This document shows positions 9,109 through 40,563 of a DNA stretch of 64,000 nucleotides, piece after piece. The number at the start of each line of letters is the position of its first letter. The first letter of the stretch is position 1. The notes under the pieces were generated by a model. The model was not told the origin of the DNA, did no database searches, and worked only from the letters and a program-made list of their open reading frames with translations. Location: NCBI GenBank assembly GCA_043754535.1, contig JAYUUN010000093.1, positions 19,590 through 83,589 on the forward strand, in the 5' to 3' direction. The position numbers and the translations under genes are program-made. This stretch comes from Chloroflexota bacterium (GTDB lineage: Bacteria > Chloroflexota > Chloroflexia > QHBQ01).

Positions 9109-9519
9109 TTAGGGGATACGGGTTGCAGTCGGGCCAGCGGGGGCAGCAGTAGGCTTGACCGGGTTGTTGCCCCGCCGTGGGGGGATGATCAGCTTCTGGC
9201 CGATGCTCAGGTTATTGGGGTCACTCAGGTTATTGGCAGCCACCAGATCGTCAACCGTCACATCGAACTTGAGCGCAATTGCACCGAGCGTGTCGCCCGC
9301 CTGCACCGTGTAGTAGGTGGCGGCGATGGTTGGTGCAGAGACCGGGCTGGTAGTTGGCGTAGGTAGCGGATTAACCTCGTTGACCTGTACGTAGTTGGCG
9401 GGCGTGCCAGGGCCGGGGCCACTGCCGCCGCTGCAACCCGCCAGCAGCAGGCAGAGCAGGAGGGCGAGGGGGGGTTGCCAGCCCAAAGGTGTCTTCTTGC
9501 GGGTCACGCTGTGCCTCAA
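9109..9519 (-). CDS. LysM-domain lipoprotein
   Basis: The signal peptide has an LLAGC lipobox. The C-terminal LysM motif is YYTVQAGDTLGAIALKFDVTVDDLVAANNL...GQKLIIP. Confidence 0.75.
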   Translation of the reverse strand: MRHSVTRKKTPLGWQPPLALLLCLLLAGCSGGSGPGPGTPANYVQVNEVNPLPTPTTSPVSAPTIAATYYTVQAGDTLGAIALKFDVTVDDLVAANNLSDPNNLSIGQKLIIPPRRGNNPVKPTAAPAGPTATRIP

Positions 9520-10091
9520 TGCTCGCTAGAGTATTCGCCAGTGGATGGTAGGCCAGGTGTAGGCTGCGGTGGGCCGTTGGTTAGTGGCACCTGCAAGATC
9601 AGGCCAGGGTAGATCGCGGGGTTGTTGCGGTCAAGCTGCGGGTTAACCGCCAGGATGTCGGCGGGAGTCGTCCCCAGGTTTGCGGCAATACTTGCCAGCG
9701 TGTCGCCTTGCTCGACAACGTAAAGCAGGGTAGAGGGGTAGATCAAGATTGGCTCTTGACCAGCAATGTAGGCAGTAGTCTCCGCCCCACCTCCACCAGT
9801 GGCATTGCTGCTAGGCTGTGGATTGACGCTGACCCCAGCGAGAGGCACTACCGCTGCCTGCCTTTGCGGGGTGGCAGTTACCTTTGCTGCTGGCCGGTTA
9901 GCCACCGTAGCTGCCTGGCCGACGGTGACGATTTGCAGCCCCTTGCCCCAGTTGCTGATCACGGTCGTCACCGCGATGGTGCCAACTACCAGCAGGATAG
10001 ATAGCACTGCGACGTTGCCGAGGCAGCTACTCAGTAGACTCTTTCTCTTTGACTTGGGCTTGCCGCCGCCACCGCCGCCATGTTCAGCCAT
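9516..10091 (-). CDS. LysM-domain membrane-anchored protein
   Basis: It has a basic N-terminus, one TM helix and a LysM motif (YVVEQGDTLASIAANLGTTPADILAVNPQL...GLILQVP). It overlaps the downstream LysM gene by 4 bp. Confidence 0.7.
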   Translation of the reverse strand: MAEHGGGGGGKPKSKRKSLLSSCLGNVAVLSILLVVGTIAVTTVISNWGKGLQIVTVGQAATVANRPAAKVTATPQRQAAVVPLAGVSVNPQPSSNATGGGGAETTAYIAGQEPILIYPSTLLYVVEQGDTLASIAANLGTTPADILAVNPQLDRNNPAIYPGLILQVPLTNGPPQPTPGLPSTGEYSSEH

Positions 10092-10226: not shown

Positions 10227-10255
10227 TTGACAGCTTTGATGGTTGAGGGTACACT
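10227..10255 (+). promoter_or_regulatory. sigma70-type promoter, TTGACA-17-TACACT
   Basis: It lies 36 nt upstream of the asnB ATG at 10291. Confidence 0.5.
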
Positions 10256-10290: not shown

Positions 10291-12237
10291 ATGTGTGGCA
10301 TTGCGGGGGTCTACAACTTGGGCGGCGGGCAGGCGACAGCCGCGCAACTGGCAGCAATGAGCGGGGTGATCCGCCACCGGGGGCCGGACGACGAGGGCTT
10401 CTACCAGTCTGCTGAAGGGCGGCTAGGCTTTGCCTTTCGGCGGCTGGCGATCCTTGACCTTTCGCCCAGCGGCCACCAACCAATGGCCGCCGCAGGTGGT
10501 CGCTATCGGATCATCTTCAATGGAGAGTTTTACAACTACAAGGAGGTTGCCGCTGAACTTGCGCGCAAGGGCTATAGCTTCCGCTCCACTGGCGACACCG
10601 AGGTGCTGGTCAACGCCTATGCCGAGTGGGGGCCAGCCTGTCTCAGCCGCCTGAACGGGATGTTCGCGTTCGCCCTCTGGGACGAGCAGCGGCAGCATCT
10701 GCTGATCGCCCGTGACCGCATGGGCATCAAGCCACTCTACTACTGGTACGACGCGGCCAGCCAATCATTGGTCTTCGGCAGCGAGATCAAGGCGATCCTG
10801 CAAGATTGCCGCGTGCCACGCGAGCCTGACCCCGCCGCCATTGCCGAGTACGCCCGCTTCATGTATGTTACTAGCGACCGCACCTGGTTCGCGGGCATCC
10901 GCCAGTTGCCGCCCGGTTGCTACCTCGAACTGGGGCCGGAGACCGAGGGCTTGCAGGTGCGCCGCTGGTGGGACTTGCCGAGCGAGGAGGACGGGCAAAA
11001 TCTACGAAGCGAGGATGAGTACATCACCGACCTGCGCGCTCTCCTACGCGACGCGGTGAAGTTGCACCTGCGGAGTGACGTGCCAGTGGGCGCGCACCTC
11101 AGCGGCGGGCTGGACAGCAGCAGCATCGTCGCCCTGGTCAGCAACCAGTTGCAGGCAAGTGGGGCTGGGCCGCTCAAGACCTTCTCTGGTGCCTTCGCCG
11201 AGGGAGCAGCCTACGACGAGCGAGCTTACATCAACCTGGTTGCCAACCGTTACCAGACCGACCACCACGAGACCATCCCCAGCGCAGCCGACCTGCCCGC
11301 TGTGTTCGACAAGCTGATCTGGCACATGGACTACCCGACTGTCGGCCCAGGACTGCTGCCCCAATACTTCGTCTGCAAACTGACGGCGGAGAACGGGGTA
11401 ATCGTGGTCAACGGTGGGCAGGGCGGTGACGAGTTGTTCGCAGGCTACTTCCGCTACGTGCCACCCTACCTGCGCGGCAAGCTAGCAACCCTGCGCCAAC
11501 ATCCCGCTGCTGCCGCCGGCTTGCTAGCCGACGCGGGCCGCATCGCCAGCCGCGCAGCACTGCGCGACCTGGCCCTCAATCGCACTCGACGCAAGATAGT
11601 GAATGAGGGCAATATGGCCCTGCTGGTCGCCGAGGCCCAGGCAGCCTTGCCAGAGCGCGACCCTGGCAGCAACCCTGGCAGCAACCCGCTGCAACGCGCC
11701 CTTTATTGGGATATGCGTAACTACCTGCCCGCTCTCTTGCACGTAGAGGATCGCACCAGCATGAGTGTTTCGCTTGAGAGTCGGGTACCGCTGCTCGACT
11801 ACCGCATCGTAGAGTTGGCAGCACGCATCCCTGCTGCGCTCAAGCTCAAAGGTTTGGAGACGAAGCGGATCATGCGGCGAGCGGTCGCTCCCCTACTCCC
11901 CCCGCAGATCGTACAGCGGCGCGATAAGAAGGGCTTCCCCACCCCGATTGATCTTTGGTTCAGCGGCCCGCTCTACGAGTGGGTATGCGACCAGCTAACC
12001 GACCTCAGCCCCACCGCCGCCGCGTTGCTCGACCAGCAGCACTTGCGCCAACTCCTACGTGAGCAGCAGCAGCATGACCACAGCCGCGCCCTCTGGATGG
12101 CCCTCAGCATCAACGCCTGGTGCCGCCAGTTTATAGACGACTTTGTGCCATTCAGCCCCACTTTGCTCCCGACGAAGGGGGGGCAAGAAGAGAGCTACCC
12201 CTTTGAAGGAGAGGAGAGGATGACTGCTGCGCGATGA
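10291..12237 (+). CDS. asnB: asparagine synthetase B family (glutamine-hydrolysing) amidotransferase
   Basis: The protein must start MCGIAGV, because the class-II glutaminase needs an Ntn Cys2; GAGGAG lies 7 nt upstream. The synthetase domain has the SGGLDSS PP-loop. The track start at 10243 is an upstream extension. Its position next to glycosyltransferases suggests a glycan-amidation role. Confidence 0.9.
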   Translation: MCGIAGVYNLGGGQATAAQLAAMSGVIRHRGPDDEGFYQSAEGRLGFAFRRLAILDLSPSGHQPMAAAGGRYRIIFNGEFYNYKEVAAELARKGYSFRSTGDTEVLVNAYAEWGPACLSRLNGMFAFALWDEQRQHLLIARDRMGIKPLYYWYDAASQSLVFGSEIKAILQDCRVPREPDPAAIAEYARFMYVTSDRTWFAGIRQLPPGCYLELGPETEGLQVRRWWDLPSEEDGQNLRSEDEYITDLRALLRDAVKLHLRSDVPVGAHLSGGLDSSSIVALVSNQLQASGAGPLKTFSGAFAEGAAYDERAYINLVANRYQTDHHETIPSAADLPAVFDKLIWHMDYPTVGPGLLPQYFVCKLTAENGVIVVNGGQGGDELFAGYFRYVPPYLRGKLATLRQHPAAAAGLLADAGRIASRAALRDLALNRTRRKIVNEGNMALLVAEAQAALPERDPGSNPGSNPLQRALYWDMRNYLPALLHVEDRTSMSVSLESRVPLLDYRIVELAARIPAALKLKGLETKRIMRRAVAPLLPPQIVQRRDKKGFPTPIDLWFSGPLYEWVCDQLTDLSPTAAALLDQQHLRQLLREQQQHDHSRALWMALSINAWCRQFIDDFVPFSPTLLPTKGGQEESYPFEGEERMTAAR

Positions 12238-13466
12238 AAATCCTTTACCTCAGCCAGTACTTCCCGCCCGAAGTGGGGGCGACCCAAACCCGTGCCTACG
12301 AGATGGCTCGCTACCTGGCCGCACAGGGGCATCAGGTGACGATGCTCACCGAGGTGCCGAACCACCCCAGCGGCATCATCCCAGCAGAGTATCGGCGGAC
12401 GGTAGCCGACTTCAGCACGCTAGAAGGCATCCGCGTAGTGCGCCTCTGGGTGCTAGCCAGCCCCAAAAAGAGCTTCTTGCGCCGCATCAGCTTCTATCTC
12501 AGTTACACCGCCATGGCGACCTGGGCTAGCCTGTTCCTGCGCGGCAAGTACGACGTGATCGTGGCAACCTCACCGCCCCTGTTTGTCGGGCTGGCGGGGG
12601 TGCTGGTCAGCTACCTGAAGCGGACGAAGCTGGTTTTTGAGGTGCGCGACATCTGGCCGGAGTCGGCGGTGATCCTGGGGGAACTGAACAACCCACGAGC
12701 GATCAAGCTGTCCGAAGCTATCGAGCAATGGTGCTACCGCCGCGCCCGCCAGATCGTAGTCGTCACCGAGGGCATCCGCCAGCGTCTCATTGCACGTGGC
12801 CTGTCGGCAAAGAAGCTGCACCTGATCATGAATGGCGCAAACGTCAGCCAGTTCCAGCCGCAGCCAGAGCAAGCCGCCGTCCTACGCCACAAGTTGGGGC
12901 TGGAGGGTAAGTTCGTTGTCCTCTATGCGGGCATCCACGGCATTGCACAGGGCATGGAGACGCTAGTAGAGGTTGCACGGCTACTGCGCGATGAAAGCAG
13001 CATCCACTTTCTTTTTGTTGGTGAGGGGCCGAAGAAGGAGGAAACTACCGCCCTGGTACGCGCCCTGGCCCTACCCAATGTCACTCTGGTGGGCGAACGT
13101 CCGCGTGAGCAGATGGCAGCCTACCTTAGCCTGGCTGACAGCAGCCTGGTGCCGCTAAAGAAAGTAGCCTTGTTCGAGGGAGCCTTGCCGAGCAAGATGT
13201 TCGAGGCACTGGCCTGCTCCACCCCAGTCATCCTCAGCGTAGGTGGCGAGGCTACTCGCGTGCTGGGGGAGATGCAGGCGGGGATCGCAGTTGAGCCAGA
13301 GAGCGCAGCCCAGATCGTCGAGGCGATTCGCTGGCTGCAAGCCCACCCGAACGAGGCGCGCTTGATGGGCGCAAGGGGCCGCGCCGCAGTCACTGCCCAC
13401 TATTCGCGGCAGGCGCAGGCCGCCGAGTTGACCTCCCTGCTAGAACAGGTAGTGGCCGAACGGTAA
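12234..13466 (+). CDS. glycosyltransferase family 4 (WcaI/WbuB-like)
   Basis: The N-terminus MKILYLSQYFPPEVGATQTRAYEMARYLAAQGHQVTMLT and the C-terminal GT4 EX7E-type region (VPLKK...FEGALPSKMFEALACSTPVI) are both present. It overlaps asnB by 4 bp. Confidence 0.85.
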   Translation: MKILYLSQYFPPEVGATQTRAYEMARYLAAQGHQVTMLTEVPNHPSGIIPAEYRRTVADFSTLEGIRVVRLWVLASPKKSFLRRISFYLSYTAMATWASLFLRGKYDVIVATSPPLFVGLAGVLVSYLKRTKLVFEVRDIWPESAVILGELNNPRAIKLSEAIEQWCYRRARQIVVVTEGIRQRLIARGLSAKKLHLIMNGANVSQFQPQPEQAAVLRHKLGLEGKFVVLYAGIHGIAQGMETLVEVARLLRDESSIHFLFVGEGPKKEETTALVRALALPNVTLVGERPREQMAAYLSLADSSLVPLKKVALFEGALPSKMFEALACSTPVILSVGGEATRVLGEMQAGIAVEPESAAQIVEAIRWLQAHPNEARLMGARGRAAVTAHYSRQAQAAELTSLLEQVVAER

Positions 13467-13477
13467 GCGGTGATGGA

Positions 13478-13488
13478 TGTGGTATAAT
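13478..13488 (+). promoter_or_regulatory. extended -10 element TGTGGTATAAT
   Basis: It lies directly after the GT4 stop, about 100 nt upstream of the 1410-aa gene. Confidence 0.45.
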
Positions 13489-13591
13489 GGCGGCAAGATG
13501 ATGGCAGTTTGTAGAGGCAGGCTTAGCCTCCCCAGGAGTGGGATCAGTATGGTTGAGCATGGCACGAGCAGCTTGAAGGAGATGATTGTAG

Positions 13592-16500
13592 ATGAGCCAA
13601 CGTGTCCGCGTCTCAGCGGTCAAACATTATGACCCCGCCAGCCCCGACCCAACAGATGAGGAGGAGCTAGCTGTCCTGCCAATAGAGGCTGGCCCACCCG
13701 TCAGCGAGCTAGAAGCTAGCAATGCGGCTAGCGAAGCTAATCAGCCCGCTGCGCACGCTGACCTGGATGCAACCACTGCCACAGTCGCCGAGCAGGTTGC
13801 CAGCCCCGAACTGGTTGAGGTCGAGACCACACCCACCAGCGAGTCGCTTGGGGCTGAGGTCACCGCCGAGCAAGTGCATCGCTCCTTGCTACCGGCTATC
13901 GTCATCCCCGCCCAATTCACCTGGCCGCTCTGGGTAGTGCGTCTGCTGCTGGTCGCGAGTGGGATTGGGCTTGGCATCTTCGGCCAGCTACGCTTGGAGC
14001 AGGCGCGGGCCGTCGCTTCGGTGCTGCCAGAGAACGCCTGGCTGCCCTTCATCGCTGGGGCGGTGCTGCTCGTCCTCGGTGCCTGGAACACGCCCACGCT
14101 GCTAACCGCAGTGCCAGCCCCCGCCCGCACCCTCTTTGGCGGCAATAGCCTCTGGTGGCTGGCGGGCGTGATGCTGGTCGCCGCGATTGCCTTCGTTGGC
14201 AACAGCCTGGTCTTCTTCAACAAGCTGAACACCATCACCGCCGACCCAGTGCAGACTCCAATCGACAGCGACCCTGGCACTCCCGCCTGGCTGTTCTTCC
14301 TGGCGGGTCTTGCCTGCTTTGGCCTGGCCCTGATCATCTGGGAGATCGGGGCGGGGCGGCGCGGTGGCGCACTCTCCGCCGACCCCGGCCCTGATCAGCT
14401 ACCGCGCTGGCTAGAAGGGTTGGTGCTGGCAGGCTTCTTCCTTGCTGCCCTCTTTGTGCGCTTCAACAACCTGGACAATGCCCCCCCTGGCCTCTGGTTT
14501 GACGAGGCGCAGAACGGCATCGTGGGCCAGCAGATCGTGGCTGGGGCCGCCGCGCCCCACCCGCTGTTCATCACCGGCTACACGCAGATGGGCGCGTTGT
14601 TCTTCTACCTGCAAGGGTTGCTGCTCAAGTTCTTTGGTGCGCAGATTTACCTGCTGCGGGTGTTGCCTGCCTTCGCTGGTGCAATCGCCGTGCCAATCAT
14701 CTACGTGCTGGCCTCGCGGCTCTACGGCTGGCGGACAGGCCTCGCTGCCGCCGCCTTCCTTTGCTTCAGCATCTGGAGCATCACCATGAGCCGCTTTGGG
14801 GTCGCCACCATCGTCACCACCACTCTCGACCTGGCGGTGATCACCTGCCTGGTGCTGGCCCTCCGCAGCGGGCGGCTGGGCTGGTATGGGCTGGCGGGGC
14901 TGCTGCTGGGCCTCAACCTGCATATGTACTATGGCGCACGGGTGCTGCCGCTGGTGATCGTCGCCGTCTTTGCCCACAAGCTAGTCAGCGAACGGTGGCG
15001 GTTCATCAAGGGCATCCGCTATGGGGTGCCGCTGTTCGTGATCGGCGCGCTGCTAGGCTTCGCCCCAATGGGCCTCTACGCCCTGCAACACCCTGGCGAG
15101 TTCTGGGGGCGCATCAACACCGTGGTCGCGGGGGGTGGTTCGGGAGCGGCAGGCATCTTCGCCAGCTTCCAGACTCCTGACGTGCAGATGAGCTTGCAGA
15201 AGCATCTGCTGATGTTCAACTGGGTCGGCGACGCGAACCCACGCCACAACTTCGCAGGGCTACCGATGCTGGACACAGTGGTGGCGGGCCTGTTCCTACT
15301 CGGCCTCGGCTACTGCGTCGCCCACTTCTGGCGGTGGCAGTACTTCTTCCCTGTCGTTTGGCTTGGCACTGAGATGCTGGGTGGTATCCTCTCGGTCTCC
15401 TTCGAGGCCCCGCAAGGCCACCGCACGATGGAGAATATGGTGACAACTGCGCTCCTGGCGGGCATTGCCGCTGGTGCCGCCCTCAATGCGCTGCGTAGCC
15501 CCTGGCTGGCCCGTCTTCGCACGCCACAACCAGCAGACCTCAGCCTCAAGCGGGTTGCCGCCGTTCCGCCAGTGGTGGTCGTTGACCAGCCACGCCGTCT
15601 GCGCCTGCGGATCGGGCAGGGGGTGGCAGCAGTGTTGGTGCTGGTGATGGCGGTGCAACTGGCGGGTACTGCCCTCGCCCGTTACGATCGCCAATCGCGC
15701 GCAACCCCTACCTGGCTTGAGATGTATGGCACCCAGTTGAGTGTCGCCCGCTTGCTGCTCAAGTACGACAAGGCTTATGAGTTCTACGTTTCGCCCCGCT
15801 ACATCGGCCTGCCACCGCAAGCCTTCCTTGCTCCAAATATCAACCCGCCGCGTACCTACGATGGTGCTTGGGCCTTGCCCTTCGATATCACAGGCCGCGA
15901 TGTAGGCATCATTGCCGACTTGGAAAGCTCGGCGGACATGGCCCGGATGTACAAACTCTACCCCAACGCCAGCTACACCGTCATCTACCCACCCAGCGAC
16001 CAGAACCCAGTGCAGTACGTGACCCTGCTCAAGGAGAGCGACCTGAACGCGATCAGGGGTGTTCATCTGCTTACCTACGCTGCCGACGCGGGCGCAGACC
16101 CTAAACCTACTAGCGACAAGTACGAGCCGAGCCTGAAGCACCAGTGGCTAGCGGCAGACGGTAAGTTCCCCCTGCGCGCGCGCTTTGAGGCCACTATGCG
16201 CCTGGCGAACAGCAGCACCGCCAGCTTCTATCTGGAAGGTGCGCCGGTCAGCGCGACAGTGACGGTGGATGGCTTCCCTGGGGGGACTGCTCGCTACGTC
16301 GCGGCTGGCTTGCACACTGTTGTGGTCGAGCAGACGGTAGCGGCGGCGGGTGGTCAGACGCACTTGCTGATGGATGCGAACGGCAGCGTTGGCCTGGAGA
16401 TAGCCCCGGAAAGCCTGTTCAAGCCGTCGGTGGAAGTTCGTGGCCTGACCGGCAACTACTACGCTGGCGGCAACGTGGCTGGCCCGCCGACGCTAGCGCG

Positions 16501-17824
16501 GATTGACCCGTTTATCTCCTTCTACTATCACCTGACCCCGATGGGCCGACCCTACGCCATCCAGTGGACGGGTAAGCTGTACATCCCAACCGACGGCAGC
16601 TACAACATCGCCACTGAGCAGATCAGCCGCTCGACCCTCGAAGTGGATGGACAACTGGGTATCACCAACAACGCCTTCAACAGCCTGGCCGAACAGTCCT
16701 TTACTCTCAAGCGCGGCTTCCACGACATTCGCCTAACCTTCTACGACACAGATGGTGGTTCGCATATGTTCCTCTACTGGACACCGCCCAGCGGCGAACG
16801 GACGATCATCCCTTCGGCCTTCCTCTGGCCGGTGCAAGGCAGCTACCCTGCGCTGGATGCACCAGGGTTGCCGACGCTGGCCGAGGCTACTGGCCGCCTG
16901 CCCCAGGACAAGCTGGCGAAGGATATGCCGCCCGCACCTACCCCTGTGCCGCAGCCAGCCCAACAGCCCCAGCAGCCCAGCGGACAGCCAACCCAGCCGC
17001 CAGCGGGCGAGAAGCTCGATCTACCCGCCGCCACTGTCCTTACTGCGCGGGCCACGATCAATCTTGAGGGAGAAGCTCCCGTGCGTGGGGTGGCGGCTGA
17101 CACGAAGGGTAACATCTATGTGCTAGCTGGTGGCGAGAGCAAGATACACAAGTACGACGCTGGTGGCAAGGAGCTAACCTCCTGGACGGTGGAGAAAGGA
17201 GGGCAGGTGGCTAAAGACCCCACAGCTATCTCCATTGCTGGCGAGCGCGTGGTGGTGCTGGACGCAGCGACCGCCAACCTCCTCAGCTACGACCTGAACG
17301 GCAAGCCGCTTTCGGTGGTGCAAGCCTGCGCCTGCTTCAACCCGCGCGACATGATCGCCCTGGTGGACGGTAGCTACTGGCTGGCGGACACCGGCCTCAA
17401 CCGCCTGATCCACGTGGACAACCAGGGCAAGGAGCTTGGCGTTGTCGGCCAACAGGGGAGTGAGGGCGGCCAGTTGCTCGAACCAGCCGCCGTCTGGCAA
17501 GACAGGGAGGGCAACCTCTACAGCTACGACAGTGGCAACAAGCGGCTGCAACGCTTCGACCGTAGCGGTCACTTCCTAGCCCAGTGGCCCTTCTACCCCA
17601 GCCCACCGCTAAACGGGACGCGCATCAGCGGCAACGACAAGTACATCTTTGTTACCGCCCCAGGCCAGAGCATGATCGTCGGCTATGACCACGAAGGCAA
17701 GGGGCCAGTGACCTGGCAGCCGAGCGGCAAGAGCGCACAACCGAGCGCGATCACCGCCACTGGCAGCGGCTTTGCCGTCGCTTACCCGAAGGAGCAGCGG
17801 GTTTTGCTATTCGACTTGCCCTGA
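13592..17824 (+). CDS. giant membrane glycosyltransferase: PMT/ArnT-like GT-C multi-TM domain + PA14 domain + NHL-repeat beta-propeller
   Basis: 1410 aa. The acidic N-terminus is followed by about 12 TM helices, with the GT-C 'DE' motif in the first external loop (GLWFDEAQNG). A PA14-like segment follows (GLTGNYYAGGNVAGPPTLARIDPFISFYYHL...IQWTGKLYIPTDGSYNIA...LYWTPPSG). Then comes a Pro/Gln linker and C-terminal NHL repeats (GNIYVLAGGESKIHKYD; GNLYSYDSGNKRLQRFD). Confidence 0.8.
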   Translation: MSQRVRVSAVKHYDPASPDPTDEEELAVLPIEAGPPVSELEASNAASEANQPAAHADLDATTATVAEQVASPELVEVETTPTSESLGAEVTAEQVHRSLLPAIVIPAQFTWPLWVVRLLLVASGIGLGIFGQLRLEQARAVASVLPENAWLPFIAGAVLLVLGAWNTPTLLTAVPAPARTLFGGNSLWWLAGVMLVAAIAFVGNSLVFFNKLNTITADPVQTPIDSDPGTPAWLFFLAGLACFGLALIIWEIGAGRRGGALSADPGPDQLPRWLEGLVLAGFFLAALFVRFNNLDNAPPGLWFDEAQNGIVGQQIVAGAAAPHPLFITGYTQMGALFFYLQGLLLKFFGAQIYLLRVLPAFAGAIAVPIIYVLASRLYGWRTGLAAAAFLCFSIWSITMSRFGVATIVTTTLDLAVITCLVLALRSGRLGWYGLAGLLLGLNLHMYYGARVLPLVIVAVFAHKLVSERWRFIKGIRYGVPLFVIGALLGFAPMGLYALQHPGEFWGRINTVVAGGGSGAAGIFASFQTPDVQMSLQKHLLMFNWVGDANPRHNFAGLPMLDTVVAGLFLLGLGYCVAHFWRWQYFFPVVWLGTEMLGGILSVSFEAPQGHRTMENMVTTALLAGIAAGAALNALRSPWLARLRTPQPADLSLKRVAAVPPVVVVDQPRRLRLRIGQGVAAVLVLVMAVQLAGTALARYDRQSRATPTWLEMYGTQLSVARLLLKYDKAYEFYVSPRYIGLPPQAFLAPNINPPRTYDGAWALPFDITGRDVGIIADLESSADMARMYKLYPNASYTVIYPPSDQNPVQYVTLLKESDLNAIRGVHLLTYAADAGADPKPTSDKYEPSLKHQWLAADGKFPLRARFEATMRLANSSTASFYLEGAPVSATVTVDGFPGGTARYVAAGLHTVVVEQTVAAAGGQTHLLMDANGSVGLEIAPESLFKPSVEVRGLTGNYYAGGNVAGPPTLARIDPFISFYYHLTPMGRPYAIQWTGKLYIPTDGSYNIATEQISRSTLEVDGQLGITNNAFNSLAEQSFTLKRGFHDIRLTFYDTDGGSHMFLYWTPPSGERTIIPSAFLWPVQGSYPALDAPGLPTLAEATGRLPQDKLAKDMPPAPTPVPQPAQQPQQPSGQPTQPPAGEKLDLPAATVLTARATINLEGEAPVRGVAADTKGNIYVLAGGESKIHKYDAGGKELTSWTVEKGGQVAKDPTAISIAGERVVVLDAATANLLSYDLNGKPLSVVQACACFNPRDMIALVDGSYWLADTGLNRLIHVDNQGKELGVVGQQGSEGGQLLEPAAVWQDREGNLYSYDSGNKRLQRFDRSGHFLAQWPFYPSPPLNGTRISGNDKYIFVTAPGQSMIVGYDHEGKGPVTWQPSGKSAQPSAITATGSGFAVAYPKEQRVLLFDLP

Positions 17825-17843
17825 ACCGCAGCGCGCAACTAGC

Positions 17844-17883
17844 AAAAAGAAACCCCGTCCCTCAACCAGGGAACGGGGTTTCG
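17844..17883. terminator. bidirectional intrinsic terminator between convergent genes
   Basis: aaaaaga-aaccccgtccc-tcaacc-agggaacggggtt. The T-tract is on the minus strand. Confidence 0.55.
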
Positions 17884-17893
17884 CTTGCCGCTA

Positions 17894-18961
17894 CTAAGCC
17901 TCACGCTCCGTCTGCTTCTCCGCGTAGATGGTGAGCGTCGCACCCTGGCGCAGGGCAGCGGCCAGTAGGGTTGCTGGTATGCTGACCACGCCTAGCAGGC
18001 CACCGAGCAGGATGGTAGCGGCCACCTGGGGCGCAAGGTTGCCAGCCCCCTCGTCGGCCCCGATCACCTTTGCGGTACGCCCACGCAGGAGATTGTAGAG
18101 CAGATTAGGGCGTAGGCCGAGGCGGTTGAGGGTCGATTGCACAAAGCTGAAGCTATCAAACTCCGGGGCGAAGAACTGCATCCTTCGTACCCGCAGGCCC
18201 GTGCGCTTGAGGGCGCGTCGCAGCGAGTGGGGGGTGAAGTGGTTGAGGTGGCGCGGCACATCCAGGTGGAACCACTTGTCGCCGCTGACCCGCGCTTCGA
18301 GGCTGGCGAAGTTCGGCACACCGATCAGGAAGATACCGCCAGGGCGCAGCAGTCGGTTGACCTCGCGCATGGTGGCGGCGGGGTCGATCACGTGTTCCAG
18401 CACGTGCCACATTACTACCGCGTCAAAGTGGCCGCTAGGGAAGTGCTGATCGGCAAGGTCGCCAACCTGCACTGGCAGGCCCAGCACCTCGCGGGGGTAG
18501 CTAGCTGATCCCTCGCTCAACTCCGTTCCCACAACATCCCAGCCCAGCTTCTGCAATTGGGCGAGCAAGAGACCACGCCCGCAGCCGACATCTAGCACCC
18601 GCCCTGGCTGGCCGCCGTTCATCAGCGTCAACTGGCGCGCGCGGTAGCGATAGAGGGCATCTTGCAGCCGCTCGATCACGCTGGGGAAGCGTTTGTCGCG
18701 GTGGGTGCCGTAGTAGCCAGCCGGGTAGTAGGCGGCCAGTTCTTTCGGCGCAGGGGTGGGCTGAGTCTGCGCCCAGCCATGCTCCGCATTGACCACGATC
18801 TCGAACTGCTCGTGAGTGATGTAGTCGGTGGCAGCGAACAGCCGCCGCGGGCTGGGGGTCTGCGGCTGGCTGGCCTCTTGCCTGGCACCGCTGCTCTCTG
18901 GGCTAGCCGCATCCGCTTCACTTAGGTTCATCGTTGCTTCCTCTGGTATGCTACTGATCAT
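17894..18961 (-). CDS. class I SAM-dependent methyltransferase (Methyltransf_11/23-like)
   Basis: Motif I is VLDVGCGRGLL and the acidic loop is DAVVMWHVLEHV. Its start codon shares one nucleotide with the stop of the upstream GT2 gene (TAATG). It is a paralog of the methyltransferase at 39740..40525. Confidence 0.8.
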   Translation of the reverse strand: MISSIPEEATMNLSEADAASPESSGARQEASQPQTPSPRRLFAATDYITHEQFEIVVNAEHGWAQTQPTPAPKELAAYYPAGYYGTHRDKRFPSVIERLQDALYRYRARQLTLMNGGQPGRVLDVGCGRGLLLAQLQKLGWDVVGTELSEGSASYPREVLGLPVQVGDLADQHFPSGHFDAVVMWHVLEHVIDPAATMREVNRLLRPGGIFLIGVPNFASLEARVSGDKWFHLDVPRHLNHFTPHSLRRALKRTGLRVRRMQFFAPEFDSFSFVQSTLNRLGLRPNLLYNLLRGRTAKVIGADEGAGNLAPQVAATILLGGLLGVVSIPATLLAAALRQGATLTIYAEKQTEREA

Positions 18962-19839
18962 TATTGGCTGATGGCGGCGGTATCGCGCCCCTCCACCTTG
19001 TTCAAGTCATCACCAGGGGGGGTGGCGGTGCCACCGGGGGTAAAGAGGCCCACACTATGATAGCGACTGACGATCTGTGAGAGCTTCTTGCTGAAGATCG
19101 GGTAGCGCATCAGGTGCAGCCGCTTGTGCAGCAGAAACTTACGCATCACGTCCAGGGTTGCCAGACCGTAAACTACGCTGCGGCGGAAGTTGACCGAGGA
19201 GGCTTCCTTGAAGTAGCGGGTCGGCACTGCGATTTCGGCGATACGGAAGTCGAAGGCGCGGGCCTGGGCGATCACCTCACTATCAAACACAAAGTCGTCG
19301 GAGTTGAGCAGGAAGGGGATCGTCTGCAACATCTGGCGAGTGTAGGCGCGGAAGCCGGTGTGCGCCTCGGAGAGACTAGTACCCATCACCAGGTTCTCGG
19401 TAGTGGTTAGGAAGCGATTGGAGATGTACTTCCAAATTGGCATTCCCCCGGCCAGAGCCTCGCCACTGAGCAGGCGCGAACCCAGCACCATGTCGGCGCG
19501 CCCCTCCAGCAGCGGCTGGATCATCTGCGGCACCAGGTCGGCGGCGTACTGGTTGTCAGGATGCAGCATCACTATGATGTCTGCCCCATCACGCAGAGCC
19601 TCGAAGTAGCAGGTCTTCTGGTTGCCGCCGTAGCCCCGATTCTGGATGTGGGTGATCACCTTGAGGCTGAGGCGGCGGGCGATTTCTACCGTCTCGTCGC
19701 TACTTACATCGTCCACCAGGATGATCTCGTCCACCACATCGGGGGGGATGTCGGCGACAGTGCGCTCCAACGTCTTCTCTGCGTTGTAAGCGGGCATCAC
19801 GACGACGACTTTGAGCTTGTTGCTGTTCATGGGCTGCAA
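18961..19839 (-). CDS. glycosyltransferase family 2, Dpm1/GtrB-like polyprenyl-phosphate sugar synthase candidate
   Basis: VVVVMPAYNAEKTLERTV...IILVDDVSSDET (DxD context) ...RGYGGNQKTCYFEA. Confidence 0.85.
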   Translation of the reverse strand: MQPMNSNKLKVVVVMPAYNAEKTLERTVADIPPDVVDEIILVDDVSSDETVEIARRLSLKVITHIQNRGYGGNQKTCYFEALRDGADIIVMLHPDNQYAADLVPQMIQPLLEGRADMVLGSRLLSGEALAGGMPIWKYISNRFLTTTENLVMGTSLSEAHTGFRAYTRQMLQTIPFLLNSDDFVFDSEVIAQARAFDFRIAEIAVPTRYFKEASSVNFRRSVVYGLATLDVMRKFLLHKRLHLMRYPIFSKKLSQIVSRYHSVGLFTPGGTATPPGDDLNKVEGRDTAAISQ

Positions 19840-19868
19840 ACTGTGTCCTTTCTGCGCAAGGCCGAAGC

Positions 19869-22679
19869 CTATTGTGGAGGGAAGACCTGGACGCGGCGGC
19901 TGTCCGACTCCAGGGTATAAACCTTGCCGCCTGGATCGGTAGCCACGTCGACCAGGCCCTGGAACTGCCCGGCCCCGCCACCAGGCAGGCCGAGGATGCG
20001 GGCGTTACCATTGTCGGTATTGATCGCTATCAGTCTGTTGCGCTCTGAACTGGTGACGTAGAGGATGTTGCCGTGGGCGGCTAGGTGTAGGCTGGTCTCC
20101 TGCTCGAAGCCGAGCAGGGGCCACTCGCGCTGAAAATTGCCCGCCCTGTCGAACTGAGCGATCCGCCGCTTGAGGTCGCTGACGTAGATTTGGCCGTTGC
20201 TACCAACCGCGCAATCTATCGGCTGGTAGAGTTGCTTTGGCACCGTGCGTTCCAGGTTATCGTTGCCGAACTGAGCGATCAACTTGCCAGTGTTGTCCAA
20301 CTTGATCACCCGATTGCCGCCGGTGTCGGCCAGGTAGATGTTACCTGTTGGGTCAGCGCAGAGGCCACGTGAGCCGTAACTCTGGGCGGCGTTGTTGAGG
20401 TTGAGGTTGCCCAGCAGCTTGCCGTCTGGGTCGTAGACAGCCATGCCACCGTTGGTGTTGAGGGCGATCAGGTGGCCCTGGGTAAAGAGCAGCGACACCA
20501 GCCGTCCGCGCTCGCTCTCACTCAACTCGGCGAACAGCCGCCAGTGGGCTGCTGGCTTGCCGTCAACGTTGATGCGCGTCACAGTGAAGTTCTCGCGGTC
20601 AGCAGTGTAGGCGTTACCCTGATCGTCGGCGGCAATCGCCAGCGGGATCGGGATCGCGTAGTCACCTTGAGGGACGGTGGTGGTCAGCGGCACAAACTGC
20701 GCGGGCGGCACCTCGCTGATCTGGGCGTAGGCATCCTTCAGGCCGAAGGTGTAGCTGTAGAACAGGTAGCTGCCGATCAGCAGCCCTAGCCCAGCCAGCA
20801 GGCTGATCAGCGAGTGGCGCAGCCCCCAGCGTGGTGGGATTGGGATGGTCGCAGGCAGCACGTAGGTCGCTGGTTCAGCCTCCACCACCGCTGCCCCCGC
20901 TGCCCCTGCTGTTTCGCCCAGGCTGGCTGCTACCCCCGGCTGAACCATCGGCACTAGCTGGGTGGCGGCTGGCACATCAGGCAGGCTCCCAGCACTAGCC
21001 ACCCTACTGGAAGCGAGTTGCGGACGGTAGCTGCGTTGCGCCCACCAGTAGAGTAGCAACCCCAGTAGCAGCACCGCCGCAATCGAGGTGAGGGCAGGAA
21101 CGCTCTCCTGCACGGCATTGCGGGCCGAGTAACCCTGACTGAGGAAACCCGCCTTGCTGCGGGCGAACACAAAATCGGGCAGCAGGCCGTTGCTGGGGAT
21201 CGTCTCGATCCACTGCTGTAGCCCTGGGTTGGGGATGCGCAGCAGTAGGCTCTTAAACAGGTCGAAGCCGTTGAGGGCGAAGCTAAACGAATCCTGGGGG
21301 TTGAAAATGAAGGCGGCGGTTTGTACCAGGCTGACTGCCAGCAAGCCAGCATAGGTCAGCTTGTAGATCAGCGAGGGGAGTAGAGTGCTAATGCGGGCGA
21401 AGCCGAGGGCGAAGGGTAGGGCGAACAGCGGCAGGATAGCAATGAAATAGCGGGCTGGTGGAGCCCAGATGCCCCACCAGTACTTGAAATTGGCGAGCAG
21501 GCCGAGGTAGGGAATGGCTACCGCCAGGATCACGATCAGGTCTAGCCGCCACCGCTTCTCCAGGCCCATGATGATTAGCCCTACCCCAGCAAGCAGGAAG
21601 ACCGGGGCGGTGGTGAGGAAGCCGAAACGCTGGTCGATGAACAGGCCGAGGCCAGAGAGGATGGTATCGGTCGCATCATTGCGTTCTAGATAGCCCGCCT
21701 TGATCGTGAACTCGTGAAAGAGAGTGTAGCTCCAACCGAAGATGCCCAGGGCAGAGACGAGCAGCACCAGCGGCAGGGTAGCATAGTGGCGCAACCAGGT
21801 AGCTAGCTTTGGCTTGCCACGCACGCTCATGTAGAAGTAGAATAGGGTGAGGATGCCAGCAAGCGGAATGTAGCGATAGTGTAGCCAGGGCAGTGAAGCA
21901 ATGCTGAGGGCGACCAGTGCAGTCTGCACCCCGGTGTTTTGCCAGAGGCGGATGCGACGAAAGGCGTAGATCACCAGCAGGGCGGCGGGCAGTTCGGTGA
22001 AGATCAGGTAGATGAAGGGGAAGATGGGCAGGGTAAGCATGAAGGTAGCAACAGTGAGGATAGCGATCCATCGCTTGTTGACCGTTTCGCGCACCAGCAG
22101 GTAGATGTTGGCGGCCAGCAGTGCGCCGAGCAGGTTGAGGAAGAAGACTACCGCCAGCCGCCCACCCAGGGCATAGGCAGGGGCGATCAGGATGCTAAGG
22201 CCAAGGCCATGCCAGGTGTAAGCCTCGTTCTGGCTACCATCGGCAGGCAGCGGCGTGGCAGGGTCGGTGCTGATGCAACGGCGACTGAGCGGCTCAATCT
22301 GCTCCCATTGCACTGGCAGTGGGTAGGTCATGTTCGGCCAGCCCTGGTAGCCCTGCGGACGGGCCACACCTTGCTGCCAGTAGGAGGGAGGATAGAAGCC
22401 TTGCTCGTCGCGCTGGCGGAAGTTATTGCACTCGTTGAAATCACCATCCTTGAGCAGGCTGATCGTAGTCATCAGGTAGGTTGGCTCGTCGCCAGAAACC
22501 GGGTCGAGGATGGTAGTGAGGCGGGGGGTGAGAGCGGCAAAGAGGGCAAGGGCGATTAGAAAGACGATAGCCATCTCCACGAAGCTGGGGCTGGCACTCG
22601 TCGCGGTGGGGTGGGAGCGCGCAGCAGGTGGGCTGGGAGCGGCCATGATGGTTATGCTGCTCTCTTGCGAAACACTCAT
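19869..22679 (-). CDS. GT-C (PMT/ArnT-like) membrane glycosyltransferase with a C-terminal NHL-repeat beta-propeller
   Basis: 936 aa. The 'DE' motif follows TM1 (DPVSGDEPTY). There are about 12 TM helices, and the C-terminal NHL repeats include GNIYLADTGGNRVIKLD, GQIYVSDLKRRIAQFD and GKVYTLESDSRRVQVF. Confidence 0.8.
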   Translation of the reverse strand: MSVSQESSITIMAAPSPPAARSHPTATSASPSFVEMAIVFLIALALFAALTPRLTTILDPVSGDEPTYLMTTISLLKDGDFNECNNFRQRDEQGFYPPSYWQQGVARPQGYQGWPNMTYPLPVQWEQIEPLSRRCISTDPATPLPADGSQNEAYTWHGLGLSILIAPAYALGGRLAVVFFLNLLGALLAANIYLLVRETVNKRWIAILTVATFMLTLPIFPFIYLIFTELPAALLVIYAFRRIRLWQNTGVQTALVALSIASLPWLHYRYIPLAGILTLFYFYMSVRGKPKLATWLRHYATLPLVLLVSALGIFGWSYTLFHEFTIKAGYLERNDATDTILSGLGLFIDQRFGFLTTAPVFLLAGVGLIIMGLEKRWRLDLIVILAVAIPYLGLLANFKYWWGIWAPPARYFIAILPLFALPFALGFARISTLLPSLIYKLTYAGLLAVSLVQTAAFIFNPQDSFSFALNGFDLFKSLLLRIPNPGLQQWIETIPSNGLLPDFVFARSKAGFLSQGYSARNAVQESVPALTSIAAVLLLGLLLYWWAQRSYRPQLASSRVASAGSLPDVPAATQLVPMVQPGVAASLGETAGAAGAAVVEAEPATYVLPATIPIPPRWGLRHSLISLLAGLGLLIGSYLFYSYTFGLKDAYAQISEVPPAQFVPLTTTVPQGDYAIPIPLAIAADDQGNAYTADRENFTVTRINVDGKPAAHWRLFAELSESERGRLVSLLFTQGHLIALNTNGGMAVYDPDGKLLGNLNLNNAAQSYGSRGLCADPTGNIYLADTGGNRVIKLDNTGKLIAQFGNDNLERTVPKQLYQPIDCAVGSNGQIYVSDLKRRIAQFDRAGNFQREWPLLGFEQETSLHLAAHGNILYVTSSERNRLIAINTDNGNARILGLPGGGAGQFQGLVDVATDPGGKVYTLESDSRRVQVFPPQ

Positions 22680-22966: not shown

Positions 22967-24463
22967 CTAGCGACCTACCTTGTTGGGGCCGAGGCTGACG
23001 CGCTGGGCGCGGCTACCGTCGTGCGAGAGTAGTATGCGCTCGTCGCCAACCACAGTCTCTAGATGCACAGGCCGCCCCCACAGTTGGTGGATGTACTGCA
23101 AGACCTTCTCCGCATAGCTCGCATCCAATTCCTGGCCCTCGTAGTGGTGGCGCAGGTAGAGTTCGTGGTTGCGGTTGTAGTCGCCATCGTCAACGGTGAT
23201 GTAGGGCTGGCCGAAGTTGGTCATGCTAGCAACGATGCCATCGCGCACCTTCTCCCAGTTCTTCTCGACGATCACCCACTCGTTGCCCTGCTTGGCGTAG
23301 AGGTAGAGGTCTAGCTCGGCGATCAGTTCTTTGGTCAGGTAGTTGCGGAGGAAGGATACATCATTGTCCATCTCGCGCACCTCGAATATCTTGGCCCGAC
23401 CCTGGCCGGGAACGCGCTTGAGGCGGTCACGCTCCTCCTCGGTCGGTGCGTCCCAGCGGCGTTCGATGGACTCGTAGAGTTTGAGGCCCAGGTAGTAGGG
23501 GTTGAGTTGGAAGCGCGAGTGATGCATCACGCCCGCATTAACTTTGGCGTACTCAGTGTAGTCGTCGCTACTCATCTCAAACTCGCGCATGATGCTCTGG
23601 TGGTGGTAAGCGGCCCAGCCCTCGTTCATAATCTTGGTCTGCATCTGCGGCACAAAGTAGAGCATCTCCTGATGCACGATGCCGATCACGTCACGCTGCC
23701 AATCCTCAAGGTGGCGGGCGTGCTGCTGGAGAAAGAGGAGCAAGTCCTTCTCTGGCTGGGCCGGGAAGCGGCGACGCTCGCTCTCCTTCTTCTCCTTCTC
23801 TTTCTCCTTCTCACTCTTGAGCGGCAAAGCGGCTTGCTGGGCCGCCTCTGCCTCAGTCGGCAGCCCTGGTAGCGACCAGAGGTCGTCGTAAGCAGACTCA
23901 GCCACGTGCGGCTTCACCTGCTCGCGGCGGTTGCCCTCGCTCTCCTCACCCGCTGTGGCGAAGCTCTGGTGCGGATCGATGTGTTCGGAGATCGAGAGTA
24001 CCGCGTCCAGGAACTCCTCCACCTTCTTGCTGCCATGCTGGTACTCATATTGGCGGATACGCTCGGCATTGAGGCTGGCGGTCTCGATCATGTGGCGGTT
24101 GGTGCGCTGGAAGTAGATGTTGTTCTTAAAGAAGTCCACATGGCCGAGGACATGGGCGGCAACCAGTCGGTTGGCGGTCAGGCTGTTGTTCTCCAAGAGG
24201 AAGGCGTAGGCAGGGTTAGTGTTGATCACCATCTCGTAGATGATGCTCAGACCAAAGTCGTACTGCATCTTCATCTTGTTGTACGCCTTGCCATGCGTCC
24301 AGTGGCTGAAGCGACCGGGAATGCCATATGCACCGAACTCGTACATGATGCTGGCAGGCACCACCTCGAAGTGGACGGGGTAGAAGTCCAGCCCGTTGGC
24401 TTTCGCCATCTCGACGATCACCTCAATATCTTTGGTTAGCTGCTCGTAGTCTTGTTCGTTCAA
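22967..24463 (-). CDS. spoVR: SpoVR-family protein
   Basis: It aligns residue for residue with the B. subtilis SpoVR N-terminus (GLDFYP...FGAYGIPGRFSHWTHGKAY). It has a TTG start with AGAGGGT 6 nt upstream. Confidence 0.9.
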   Translation of the reverse strand: MNEQDYEQLTKDIEVIVEMAKANGLDFYPVHFEVVPASIMYEFGAYGIPGRFSHWTHGKAYNKMKMQYDFGLSIIYEMVINTNPAYAFLLENNSLTANRLVAAHVLGHVDFFKNNIYFQRTNRHMIETASLNAERIRQYEYQHGSKKVEEFLDAVLSISEHIDPHQSFATAGEESEGNRREQVKPHVAESAYDDLWSLPGLPTEAEAAQQAALPLKSEKEKEKEKKESERRRFPAQPEKDLLLFLQQHARHLEDWQRDVIGIVHQEMLYFVPQMQTKIMNEGWAAYHHQSIMREFEMSSDDYTEYAKVNAGVMHHSRFQLNPYYLGLKLYESIERRWDAPTEEERDRLKRVPGQGRAKIFEVREMDNDVSFLRNYLTKELIAELDLYLYAKQGNEWVIVEKNWEKVRDGIVASMTNFGQPYITVDDGDYNRNHELYLRHHYEGQELDASYAEKVLQYIHQLWGRPVHLETVVGDERILLSHDGSRAQRVSLGPNKVGR

Positions 24464-24467
24464 TGGT

Positions 24468-25080: not shown

Positions 25081-25089
25081 GTGCTTGCC

Positions 25090-27254: not shown

Positions 27255-27348
27255 AACATACCTGCCTTGCAAAGGGGCGAGTAGCCACCCACCCCACGTA
27301 GAAGTTGCGTTTGACAGAGGGTACTGCCAAGCTCTGGTGGCTGCCCAG

Positions 27349-34233: not shown

Positions 34234-34346
34234 ACCAGACCATGCCAGCCTGCCTCCTCCACAGTGGGGAGGCTGGCAGCAGCAAAGCAACAGTGAGTGC
34301 GTAACGCAGATATATTTCACCAAACAGGAAGCAAGGAGAGCTAGTT

Positions 34347-37472: not shown

Positions 37473-37490
37473 GCAGCAAGCCTGAGCGCG

Positions 37491-37526
37491 CCCCCCTCCT
37501 GCTTGCAGGAGGGGGGTGTTCTTTTA
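37491..37526 (+). terminator. strong intrinsic terminator (11-bp GC stem, U-tract)
   Basis: cccccctcctg-cttg-caggagggggg followed by tgttctttta. Confidence 0.7.
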
Positions 37527-37532
37527 CCCAAA

Positions 37533-37541: not shown

Positions 37542-37547
37542 CAGCAC

Positions 37548-40525: not shown

Positions 40526-40563
40526 CTTCACTGTTGATCGCTCCTCTCCGCCAGTTGTCTGGC

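Follow-up and report, generated by a model that had tools for sequence, protein, structure and literature searches.

The production of a lipid-linked sugar by a family 2 glycosyltransferase (GT2) and its use by GT-C transferases is a well established logic. In the assembly of mycobacterial and corynebacterial lipomannan, lipoarabinomannan and arabinan (Ppm1 together with PimE, MptA-D, EmbA-C and AftA-D) one GT2 feeds several GT-Cs, and there is precedent for several GT-Cs being fed by one polyprenyl-phosphate-mannose synthase (PMC3485146). EmbC holds its acceptor with an extracytoplasmic carbohydrate-binding module (CBM) (PMC3044687), and AftD, the Emb proteins and the GT136 enzyme ORF12 are GT-Cs in which such a module binds the acceptor glycan (PMC11127046). 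Three-component systems (GtrA/GtrB/GtrV, CsbB/YfhO and GT136 ORF12; PMC11127046) likewise combine a GT2 synthase with a GT-C acting outside the membrane. In the archaeal Agl22/Agl23 system of Haloarcula hispanica, Agl23 is a putative hexose-phosphate-dolichol flippase, and the purified protein moves lipid-linked oligosaccharide in proteoliposomes (PMC11182771). Here we describe a locus from a Chloroflexota bacterium. We analyzed a stretch of 64,000 nucleotides of contig JAYUUN010000093.1, in the following called the window, to which all positions refer. Six long open reading frames (ORFs) between 10291 and 22679 encode an AsnB-family amidotransferase (asnB), a GT4, a methyltransferase (MT), a GT2 and two large membrane proteins termed gtc1 and gtc2. 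All six carry the domains that an earlier note on this DNA had named (Pfam and NCBIfam profile searches). We lean towards reading this interval as the core of an extracytoplasmic glycosylation system dependent on a polyprenyl-phosphate-linked sugar, with an envelope glycan as the most likely acceptor.

AftD, AftA, AftB, PimE and EmbA are structural matches of the window’s GT-C proteins, but there is no relation to the mycobacterial GT-Cs at the sequence level and the ectodomains are of PA14 and NHL type, not Emb/AftD-type CBMs. The locus further differs from the mycobacterial systems in its phylum, Chloroflexota, and in the presence of a membrane-anchored methyltransferase and Agl23-like proteins in the window-type cluster. 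A C-terminal module, in ORF12 an acceptor-binding CBM, is shared with GT136 ORF12. In contrast to the three-component systems, however, the interval is without GtrA, MATE or Wzx and two to five GT-Cs occur rather than one; compared to GtrB the GT2 is without transmembrane (TM) helices and has HPDNQY in place of DADLQ. The likeness to Agl22/Agl23 lies in the GT2s of the window, which match the haloarchaeal dolichyl-phosphate (Dol-P)-hexose transferase and AglJ models, and in genuine members of the TIGR03663/Agl23 family within the full cluster. These Agl23 genes are located outside the six-gene interval, though, gtc1 and gtc2 are not members, the context is bacterial, and NHL fusions are present. 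With ArnT (GT83), PMT (GT39) and PMT_2 proteins gtc1 shares a passing PMT_2 score and an acidic first-loop motif after TM1. The window proteins differ from ArnT and PMT by having no PF02366, MIR or ArnT equivalog match, and gtc1 in addition by four extra N-terminal TM helices and ectodomains of about 700 amino acids (aa). New are the gtc2 family, which has no Pfam model, the architecture of gtc1 with its 4-TM extension, PA14 dyad and propeller, the gtc2-gtc1 fusions, the HPDNQY subfamily of GT2 and the Chloroflexia cluster with Agl23-family proteins. Literature searches for a GT-C with NHL or PA14 domains, for a GT39 with a beta-propeller and for LA_3751/LA_3752 returned nothing relevant.

The two GT-C proteins and their parts are located as follows:

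19869-22679, minus strand: gtc2, 936 aa; predicted GT-C-fold domain, cytoplasmic linker, 13th TM helix and NHL propeller
21018-22679, minus strand: GT-C domain of gtc2 (aa 1-554) with GDEPxY first-loop motif, D64/E65 at 22485-22490
19872-20612, minus strand: NHL beta-propeller of gtc2 (aa 690-936), after TM13 (aa 622-642)
13592-17824, plus strand: gtc1, putative GT-C glycosyltransferase of 1410 aa
13898-14356, plus strand: N-terminal 4-TM extension of gtc1 (aa 103-255), before TM1 of the GT-C core; from hydropathy and AlphaFold2 (AF2) helices
14399-15700, plus strand: GT-C membrane core of gtc1 (aa 270-703) with WFDEAQNG first-loop motif, D304/E305 at 14501-14506
16112-16831, plus strand: tandem PA14 domains of gtc1 (approximately aa 841-950 and 951-1080)
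17039-17821, plus strand: C-terminal six-bladed NHL-type beta-propeller of gtc1 (aa 1150-1410)

The earlier note had expected the TM domains of both proteins to be recognizable as GT-C in profile searches. This was the case for gtc1, whereas for gtc2 the profiles failed and the assignment came from the AF2 model and Foldseek. Residues 1-554 of gtc2 have no Pfam or NCBIfam match, there is no match to TIGR03663 and no detectable sequence similarity to PMT_2. When the single sequence was compared to solved structures only NHL matches were obtained, and a 33-sequence family profile searched against the PDB gave nothing at E<=10. Alignment of this family profile with hhalign to gtc1 and to the proteins encoded at 34347 and 37503 yielded probabilities of about 1% or less. 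In Pfam searches at E<=1 just 4 of the 33 relatives touch DIE2_ALG10, all weakly (best 0.0015). The only named relative of the family is NF047440, the LA_3751/LA_3752 family of putative glycosyltransferases from Leptospira: 24 of the 33 relatives match it weakly over about 300 residues, with 17-53 bits at a cutoff of 200 bits, and gtc2 of the window itself has no match. Since sequence profiles found no relation to GT-C enzymes, structure prediction was needed. The AF2 model of the membrane domain (pLDDT 86.8, pTM 0.90) was searched with Foldseek, and the top 15 matches were all GT-C enzymes. According to this model the membrane domain of gtc2 is of GT-C fold in spite of the missing sequence-level match. 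AF2 helices and the positive-inside rule predict 12 TM helices, a cytoplasmic linker, TM13 and a propeller outside. The propeller itself is matched by PF01436 (57.8 bits, cutoff 20) and by the NHL structures of Pizza, TRIM71 and PknD (5e-15 to 4e-9).

Residue conservation in gtc2 was counted over 147 representatives that share no more than 50% identity with one another. D64 is found in 146 of 146, E occupies position 65 in 120 and Q in 24 of them, and R410, located within WWGxWxPPxRY, again occurs in 146 of 146. Together with D80, H157, D349 and G353, R410 is essentially invariant across the family representatives. D64 is also invariant in both alignments A1 and A2, E65 in A1 and to at least 90% in A2. 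At E<=1e-30 the family counts at least 2,876 cluster representatives, rising to 7,681 at E<=1e-10. With its profile at least 481 loci were retrieved from the species genomes of GTDB, and the best 80 belong to Chloroflexia, Thermomicrobiales, Acidobacteriota/Vicinamibacteria, Aminicenantes, Dehalococcoidia and others. Members are mostly stand-alone proteins of 500-750 aa, and the NHL fusion is restricted to the window’s lineage (P0001-P0005). The gtc2 family thus represents a large and broad family of predicted GT-C fold missed by current Pfam models, with D64, D349, G353 and R410 as targets for mutagenesis. In nine loci, mostly labelled Thermomicrobiales/Thermomicrobia (L022, L026, L027, L029, L030, L032, L034, L035 and L038), a GT4 different from that of the window directly precedes, and often overlaps, a shorter gene of the gtc2 family (~490-525 aa). 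This pairing is conserved and distinct from the Chloroflexia cluster.

In gtc1 the cytoplasmic N-terminus is followed by the 4-TM extension and then by the PMT_2/ArnT-like core; next come an alpha/beta domain, the two PA14 copies, a linker rich in P, Q and T and finally the NHL-type propeller. The core matches PMT_2 (PF13231) with 36.5 bits at a cutoff of 26.1 (aa 336-478), and predicted structure and fold search both place it in the GT-C membrane fold. Pfam and NCBIfam gave no PF02366 PMT, PMT_4TMC, MIR or ArnT-specific match. Because the PMT- and ArnT-specific models remained unmatched, we file gtc1 as a GT-C of PMT_2 type and not under GT39 or GT83; PF02366 is present in some of its homologues. 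The earlier note had proposed to compare the TM domains with ArnT and PMT structures and had named PMT_2 or GT39/GT83 as expected matches; the GT-C fold was borne out, GT39/GT83-specific models were not matched, and the resemblance of gtc1 to ArnT is structural only. The PA14 assignment rests on the Pfam match (32 bits, cutoff 24) and on the PA14 fold, and both copies match sugar-binding PA14 structures when predicted structures are compared. For the propeller the Pfam NHL model gives 17 bits, below its cutoff of 20, but NHL domains in the PDB are matched, with Thin at 1.8e-14 and TRIM71 at 2e-11; the ScyF NHL model gives 7e-14 and a family profile 2e-37. Homologues of the gtc1 family are mostly 35-49% identical to gtc1, and the combination of PMT_2, PA14 and NHL occurs in dozens of Chloroflexia proteins labelled ‘glycosyltransferase family 39 protein’ at NCBI. 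The topology of the 4-TM extension is kept in most of 46 homologues examined, down to ~25% identity. We considered a fused GtrA-type flippase for this extension, which found no support, as there was no Pfam match even at E<=10.

Taken by fold and residues, both gtc1 and gtc2 are GT-C-fold enzymes which would transfer sugars. The first-loop Asp/Glu postulated earlier is conserved in both: D304/E305 of gtc1 to at least 90% in 47 sequences, and without exception in the 44-sequence alignment A3, and D64 of gtc2 as described above. Both proteins also carry the postulated propellers, which are C-terminal and predicted to be extracytoplasmic.

We compared the window proteins to the ORFs of the best 80 of the at least 481 loci retrieved by the gtc2 family profile. 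In 16 Chloroflexia loci (L006-L021) the genes appear in the order 31096-like, 34347-like (PMT_2 with NHL), sometimes 37503-like, MT on the opposite strand, gtc2-like, gtc1-like and GT2, where the numbers refer to gene positions in the window. The gtc1-like gene is sometimes duplicated. A more distant locus of 35% identity (L005) contains a gtc1-like gene, an NHL-only protein, gtc2 with NHL, GT2 and a PMT_2/NHL protein. The conserved unit thus consists of MT, gtc2, gtc1 and GT2 together with the genes at 31096-39743 of the window, which we call part 2. Parts 1 and 2 form one cluster in other Chloroflexia; in the window genome and in a 90% relative (L086) a SpoVR/DUF444/PrkA operon splits it. 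Judged from these gene contents, MT, gtc2, gtc1 and GT2 appear to be the conserved core of a cell-surface glycosylation system of Chloroflexota.

Within this unit gtc2 and gtc1 are closely connected. In L011 and L019 the two genes share 4 nt, and in L007, L009, L010 and L012 they form one uninterrupted ORF of ~1,200-2,137 aa in which 200-300 aa of low complexity link the two parts; the ORFs of L007, L010 and L012 reach the end of the contig. One example is the following:

L009, 5101-11514: single ORF joining a gtc2-type GT-C and a gtc1-type GT-C/PA14/NHL protein

In addition, P0130 has with 2094 aa the length expected of a gtc2-gtc1 fusion. With orthologues that are adjacent, overlapping or fused, gtc1 and gtc2 are probably functional partners by a Rosetta-stone argument. 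The fusion is topologically consistent, since both ends at the junction are predicted to be cytoplasmic. Such fusions suggest two different GT-Cs in a complex, like Pmt1-Pmt2 or EmbA-EmbB.

The lipid-linked sugar would be provided by the GT2:

18961-19830, minus strand: GT2, 289 aa as called in public assemblies, Glycos_transf_2 6e-25
19546-19563, minus strand: HPDNQY motif of GT2, aligning to DADLQH (DPMS) and DADLQN (ArnC)

An exact look-up of the GT2 read from its TTG start found no record, since the public gene call places the start 9 nt further downstream. The three best NCBIfam matches are AglJ (83.6 bits, 1.6e-23; cutoff 325), PpgS (76 bits, 2.7e-21; cutoff 370) and the haloarchaeal Dol-P-hexose transferase (65 bits, 3.5e-18; cutoff 375); all span the catalytic domain and none reaches its cutoff. 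The best solved relatives are DPMS (5mlz, 2e-9) and then ArnC. In the HPDNQY motif the first Asp of DxD is replaced by His, while the second, metal-binding Asp and the Gln are retained. The motif recurs unchanged in seven orthologues from the cluster that are 67-74% identical to the window’s GT2; in the same loci the membrane domain of gtc2 reaches 39-48%. Hydropathy analysis found no hydrophobic segment at the TM threshold. Soluble or peripheral relatives do exist among polyprenyl-phosphate GT2s, for example human DPM1 and PpgS. The closest families are polyprenyl- and dolichyl-phosphate transferases, but with TM helices and the DAD motif missing the GT2 is not a canonical Dpm1/GtrB, the type named in the earlier note.

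The GT2 subfamily is very large: at least 8000 candidates pass E<=1e-10, and the best 120 are all 65-77% identical. A GT2-type gene lies within or adjoining the gtc1/gtc2 cluster in L005, L006, L009, L011, L014, L015, L016 and L019. Homologues of about 70% identity furthermore adjoin PMT_2 genes in three unrelated contexts:

L087, 8001-11518: GT2 homologue followed by an LPG_synthase_TM gene and next a PMT_2 GT-C
L089, 2686-4542: GT2 homologue followed by an LPG_synthase_TM gene
L088, 2042-12176: GT2 homologue, with further PMT_2 genes in the locus

We take the LPG_synthase_TM gene to be flippase-like, by analogy to MprF. Genes of the gtc2 family were sought beside these three homologues and not found; the partners are ordinary PMT_2 proteins. 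In L087 and L088 the GT2 homologues lie among radical-SAM and epimerase genes, and one of the three contigs carries the label Nitrososphaerales archaeon, possibly through a binning error. The repeated coupling to GT-C genes is the best evidence for a role of GT2 in lipid-linked sugar formation, and the enzyme is probably of the polyprenyl-phosphate hexose synthase type.

The methyltransferase is encoded next to GT2:

17894-18961, minus strand: MT, class I S-adenosylmethionine (SAM) methyltransferase, Methyltransf_23 3e-32

Hydropathy indicates one C-terminal TM helix (aa 308-337). Of the 16 syntenic Chloroflexia loci, 13 have an MT orthologue of 46-50% identity next to a gtc2-like gene, and an orthologue also adjoins a 47%-identical gtc1 homologue, so MT is a conserved member of the cluster. 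As SAM is cytoplasmic, MT would have to act before export. Sacculi of Chloroflexus reportedly carry a polysaccharide with O-methyl sugars, with which a methyltransferase in the cluster would agree.

A further step required by the proposed pathway is the flipping of the lipid-linked sugar. Pfam scans of 10291-22679 revealed nothing like GtrA, Wzx, MATE or an MprF-like flippase, and in this respect the complete lipid-carrier pathway assumed in the earlier note has a gap. The only candidates are the two Agl23-family proteins encoded in part 2, outside the six-gene interval, where the following genes are located:

31096-34233, plus strand: Agl23-family (TIGR03663) GT-C-like membrane protein, 169.6 bits (cutoff 126.25)
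34347-37472, plus strand: second Agl23-family (TIGR03663) GT-C-like membrane protein, 265.5 bits (same cutoff), with NHL propeller
37503-39743, plus strand: membrane protein of 746 aa without family match
39740-40744, minus strand: second SAM methyltransferase
40564-41277, minus strand: second AglJ-like GT2, 237 aa

Among the 16 syntenic Chloroflexia loci, 10 contain Agl23-family orthologues within the cluster, the 34347 type in 10 and the 31096 type in 6, and an orthologue of the 746-aa protein is present in L009, L012 and L018; in these other Chloroflexia the genes directly adjoin gtc2, gtc1 and GT2. By family membership the two Agl23-like proteins are the best candidates for the flipping step. 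It is also conceivable that gtc1 and/or gtc2 are themselves flippases or scramblases of lipid-linked sugars, or non-catalytic scaffolds, and not transferases. GT-C-like subunits such as PIGU/GAB1 provide a precedent. Agl23, GT-C-like as well, flips lipid-linked glycans in vitro (PMC11182771), gtc1 has a weak match to TIGR03663 (2.3e-6), and no other flippase is encoded in the interval. The score of this match is, however, 26.9 bits at a cutoff of 126.25, true members of the Agl23 family are separately encoded in the cluster, and D64, D349 and R410 of gtc2 as well as D304/E305 of gtc1 correspond to the catalytic signature of GT-Cs in extracytoplasmic loops. We therefore regard a flippase or scaffold function as very improbable.

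In the pathway we favour, GT2 would act as a soluble or peripheral enzyme at the cytoplasmic face and charge polyprenyl phosphate with a hexose taken from a nucleotide sugar. The membrane-anchored MT might methylate, most plausibly, the lipid-linked sugar or a cytoplasmic precursor of the acceptor. After flipping by a factor encoded outside the interval, for which the two Agl23-family proteins are the best candidates, gtc1 and gtc2 would transfer the sugar to the acceptor outside the membrane by means of their first-loop Asp/Glu. The tandem PA14 and NHL ectodomains may hold the acceptor as do the CBMs of EmbC, AftD and GT136 ORF12. An envelope glycan, either wall polysaccharide or lipoglycan, would in this way be built or decorated stepwise outside the membrane, comparable to mycobacterial lipomannan and arabinan.

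Protein, polymer and lipid had all been named as acceptors in the earlier note. The PA14 tandem and the presence of several GT-C paralogues speak for a glycan rather than for protein O-mannosylation. On balance we expect a cell-envelope glycan rather than a protein, because the PA14 domains resemble sugar-binding ones, because GT-Cs with glycan-binding modules build polymers, and because three to five GT-C paralogues occur per one to two lipid-sugar synthases. If, on the other hand, gtc1 and gtc2 were PMT-like protein O-glycosyltransferases, they would use the polyprenyl-phosphate-hexose made by GT2 to modify Ser/Thr in proteins that are secreted, belong to the S-layer or carry PT linkers, and these substrates would be recognized by the NHL propellers. 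This would agree with the PMT_2 match of gtc1, with Pmt4 and Pmt2 among the top structural matches of gtc1 and gtc2, with NHL propellers being typically protein- or ligand-binding modules, with an SLH-domain protein in the window (49971-52397) and with the P/T/Q-rich linker within gtc1 itself. Against it, gtc1 of the window is without PF02366 match, the structural scores of ArnT, ALG12, AglB and STT3 equal or beat those of the PMTs, and the tandem PA14 domains match sugar-binding structures. Bacterial protein O-mannosylation is moreover known to use one Pmt, whereas the clusters here hold three to five GT-C-like paralogues and a methyltransferase. We consider protein O-glycosylation rather unlikely. 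An ArnT-like modification of a membrane lipid (glycolipid or lipid headgroup) instead of a polymer or protein is extremely improbable: two PA14 domains and a propeller on long linkers would be needless for reaching a lipid headgroup, no ArnT or ArnC equivalog model is matched at cutoff, and the clusters contain multiple GT-C paralogues.

Several observations weigh against a glycosylation core with an envelope-glycan acceptor. The cluster is split in the window by SpoVR/DUF444/PrkA, and gtc1 and gtc2 lie in separate operons. No recognized flippase is encoded in the interval, and the 4-TM extension of gtc1 has no similarity to GtrA. NHL propellers are less familiar as lectins than as enzymes or as binders of proteins or ligands, and this would fit a protein acceptor equally well. 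The cluster was found in no cultured relative with known wall chemistry. Finally, GT2 scores far below every equivalog cutoff, has His for the first Asp of DxD and is without a TM helix, for which reasons its lipid-phosphate acceptor is deduced only from the similarity ranking and the gene neighbourhood.

A more specific version of the envelope-glycan reading appears possible to us, although doubtful. The core and the Agl23-like genes might be the assembly line of an envelope glycopolymer specific to Chloroflexia. The physically coupled gtc2-gtc1 and further GT-Cs would build it wholly outside the membrane, using a single polyprenyl-phosphate-hexose that may be methylated.

The two remaining genes of the interval are located upstream of gtc1:

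10227-10255, plus strand: promoter-like site TTGACA-17-TACACT upstream of asnB, a consensus match only
10291-12237, plus strand: asnB, AsnB-family glutamine amidotransferase of 648 aa (Pfam/NCBIfam)
12234-13466, plus strand: GT4 (GT-B), WcaI-like, overlapping asnB by 4 nt

The longest ORF of asnB begins at a TTG at 10243, while the start at 10291 yields the obligatory N-terminal MCGIAGV; this terminus and its position behind the promoter-like site favour 10291. The protein belongs to the AsnB/asparagine synthase family on account of its N-terminal catalytic Cys and the matches to TIGR01536 (487 bits, cutoff 267), Asn_synthase (7.8e-94) and GATase_7 (1.3e-47). GT4 matches Glyco_trans_4_4 (2.7e-25) and Glycos_transf_1 (7.4e-21), and the WcaI subfamily with 183 bits at a cutoff of 276. 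The earlier note had regarded all six genes as one pathway, in which AsnB (by amidation) and GT4 would serve as dedicated tailoring or priming enzymes of the same glycan. The arrangement in the window is compatible with this, as asnB, GT4 and gtc1 point in the same direction, the first two overlap, and no terminator was found in the 125-bp gap between GT4 and gtc1; moreover, about nine loci of Thermomicrobiales type have a GT4 immediately before a gtc2-family gene. Yet neither gene occurs within 10 kb of the cluster in the 16 Chloroflexia loci or in L005, nor beside the 47%-identical gtc1 homologue, and both accompany it only in assemblies of the window’s own species (L001, L002). AsnB passes the generic asparagine-synthase model but stays far below the cutoffs of the models for exopolysaccharide (EPS)-associated amidotransferases. 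A common pathway of all six genes thus seems quite improbable, and the assumption of a complete six-gene pathway was dropped in favour of a core of MT, gtc2, gtc1 and GT2 with part 2. AsnB and GT4 are lineage-specific additions outside the conserved cluster, with a putative link to glycosylation.

The six ORFs are arranged as two convergent operons:

10291-17824, plus strand: operon of asnB (10291-12237), GT4 (12234-13466) and gtc1 (13592-17824)
22679-17894, minus strand: operon of gtc2 (22679-19869), GT2 (19830-18961) and MT (18961-17894)
17849-17882: hairpin terminator between the convergent gtc1 and MT, 13-bp stem with 8 G-C pairs

Their length, the strong profile matches and the conserved orthologues argue against chance features. 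Contigs from ENA and JGI, the longest of 131 kb, also encode proteins identical to those of the window, and L086, the 90%-identical contig of a metagenome-assembled genome (MAG), has the same local gene order. A horizontally acquired ‘island’ had been considered, but the G+C content of 0.59-0.64 over 10-23 kb equals that of the flanks and there is no sign of acquisition. The closest relatives of all large window proteins are MAGs labelled ‘Chloroflexia bacterium’; the phylum Chloroflexota given in the earlier note was hence correct, the class Ktedonobacteria was not.

Upstream of asnB the intergenic region contains a second promoter-like site as a mirror image of the first, and further genes surround the cluster:

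9109-10091: two small LysM-domain proteins, divergent from asnB
10204-10175: TTGACA-18-TACAAT, mirror-image promoter-like site between the LysM genes and asnB
22967-29295: SpoVR / DUF444 (YhbH-like) / PrkA stress-kinase operon
25090-26064: N6/N4 DNA methyltransferase gene inside this operon, with local G+C down to 0.55
29787-30557: metallo-beta-lactamase-fold protein, 256 aa; Pfam matches include PF23023 Anti-Pycsar_Apyc1 (cyclic-nucleotide phosphodiesterase type)
41360-41881: Roadblock/LC7 ORF
42664-43224: stand-alone Cas4/PD-(D/E)XK nuclease-like ORF
45414-48344: class A penicillin-binding protein, an envelope protein
49971-52397: SLH-domain protein with PQQ-like beta-propeller repeats, an envelope protein and candidate glycosylation substrate

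In L086 the place of the DNA methyltransferase gene is taken by genes for a 186-aa protein and an S8/SLH protease.

To our knowledge the chemistry of the Chloroflexota envelope is poorly known and its architecture debated. If the assembly-line model were true, the cluster would be an independent, non-actinobacterial counterpart of mycobacterial lipomannan and arabinan synthesis, the gtc2 family would found a new glycosyltransferase family, and with the PA14/NHL ectodomains a new class of modules that hold the acceptor would be added. No concept is overturned by these results. The cluster gives concrete genetic access to a glycan or glycoprotein of the Chloroflexota envelope, and offers a lead into the envelope biology of this phylum and into an unannotated enzyme family.

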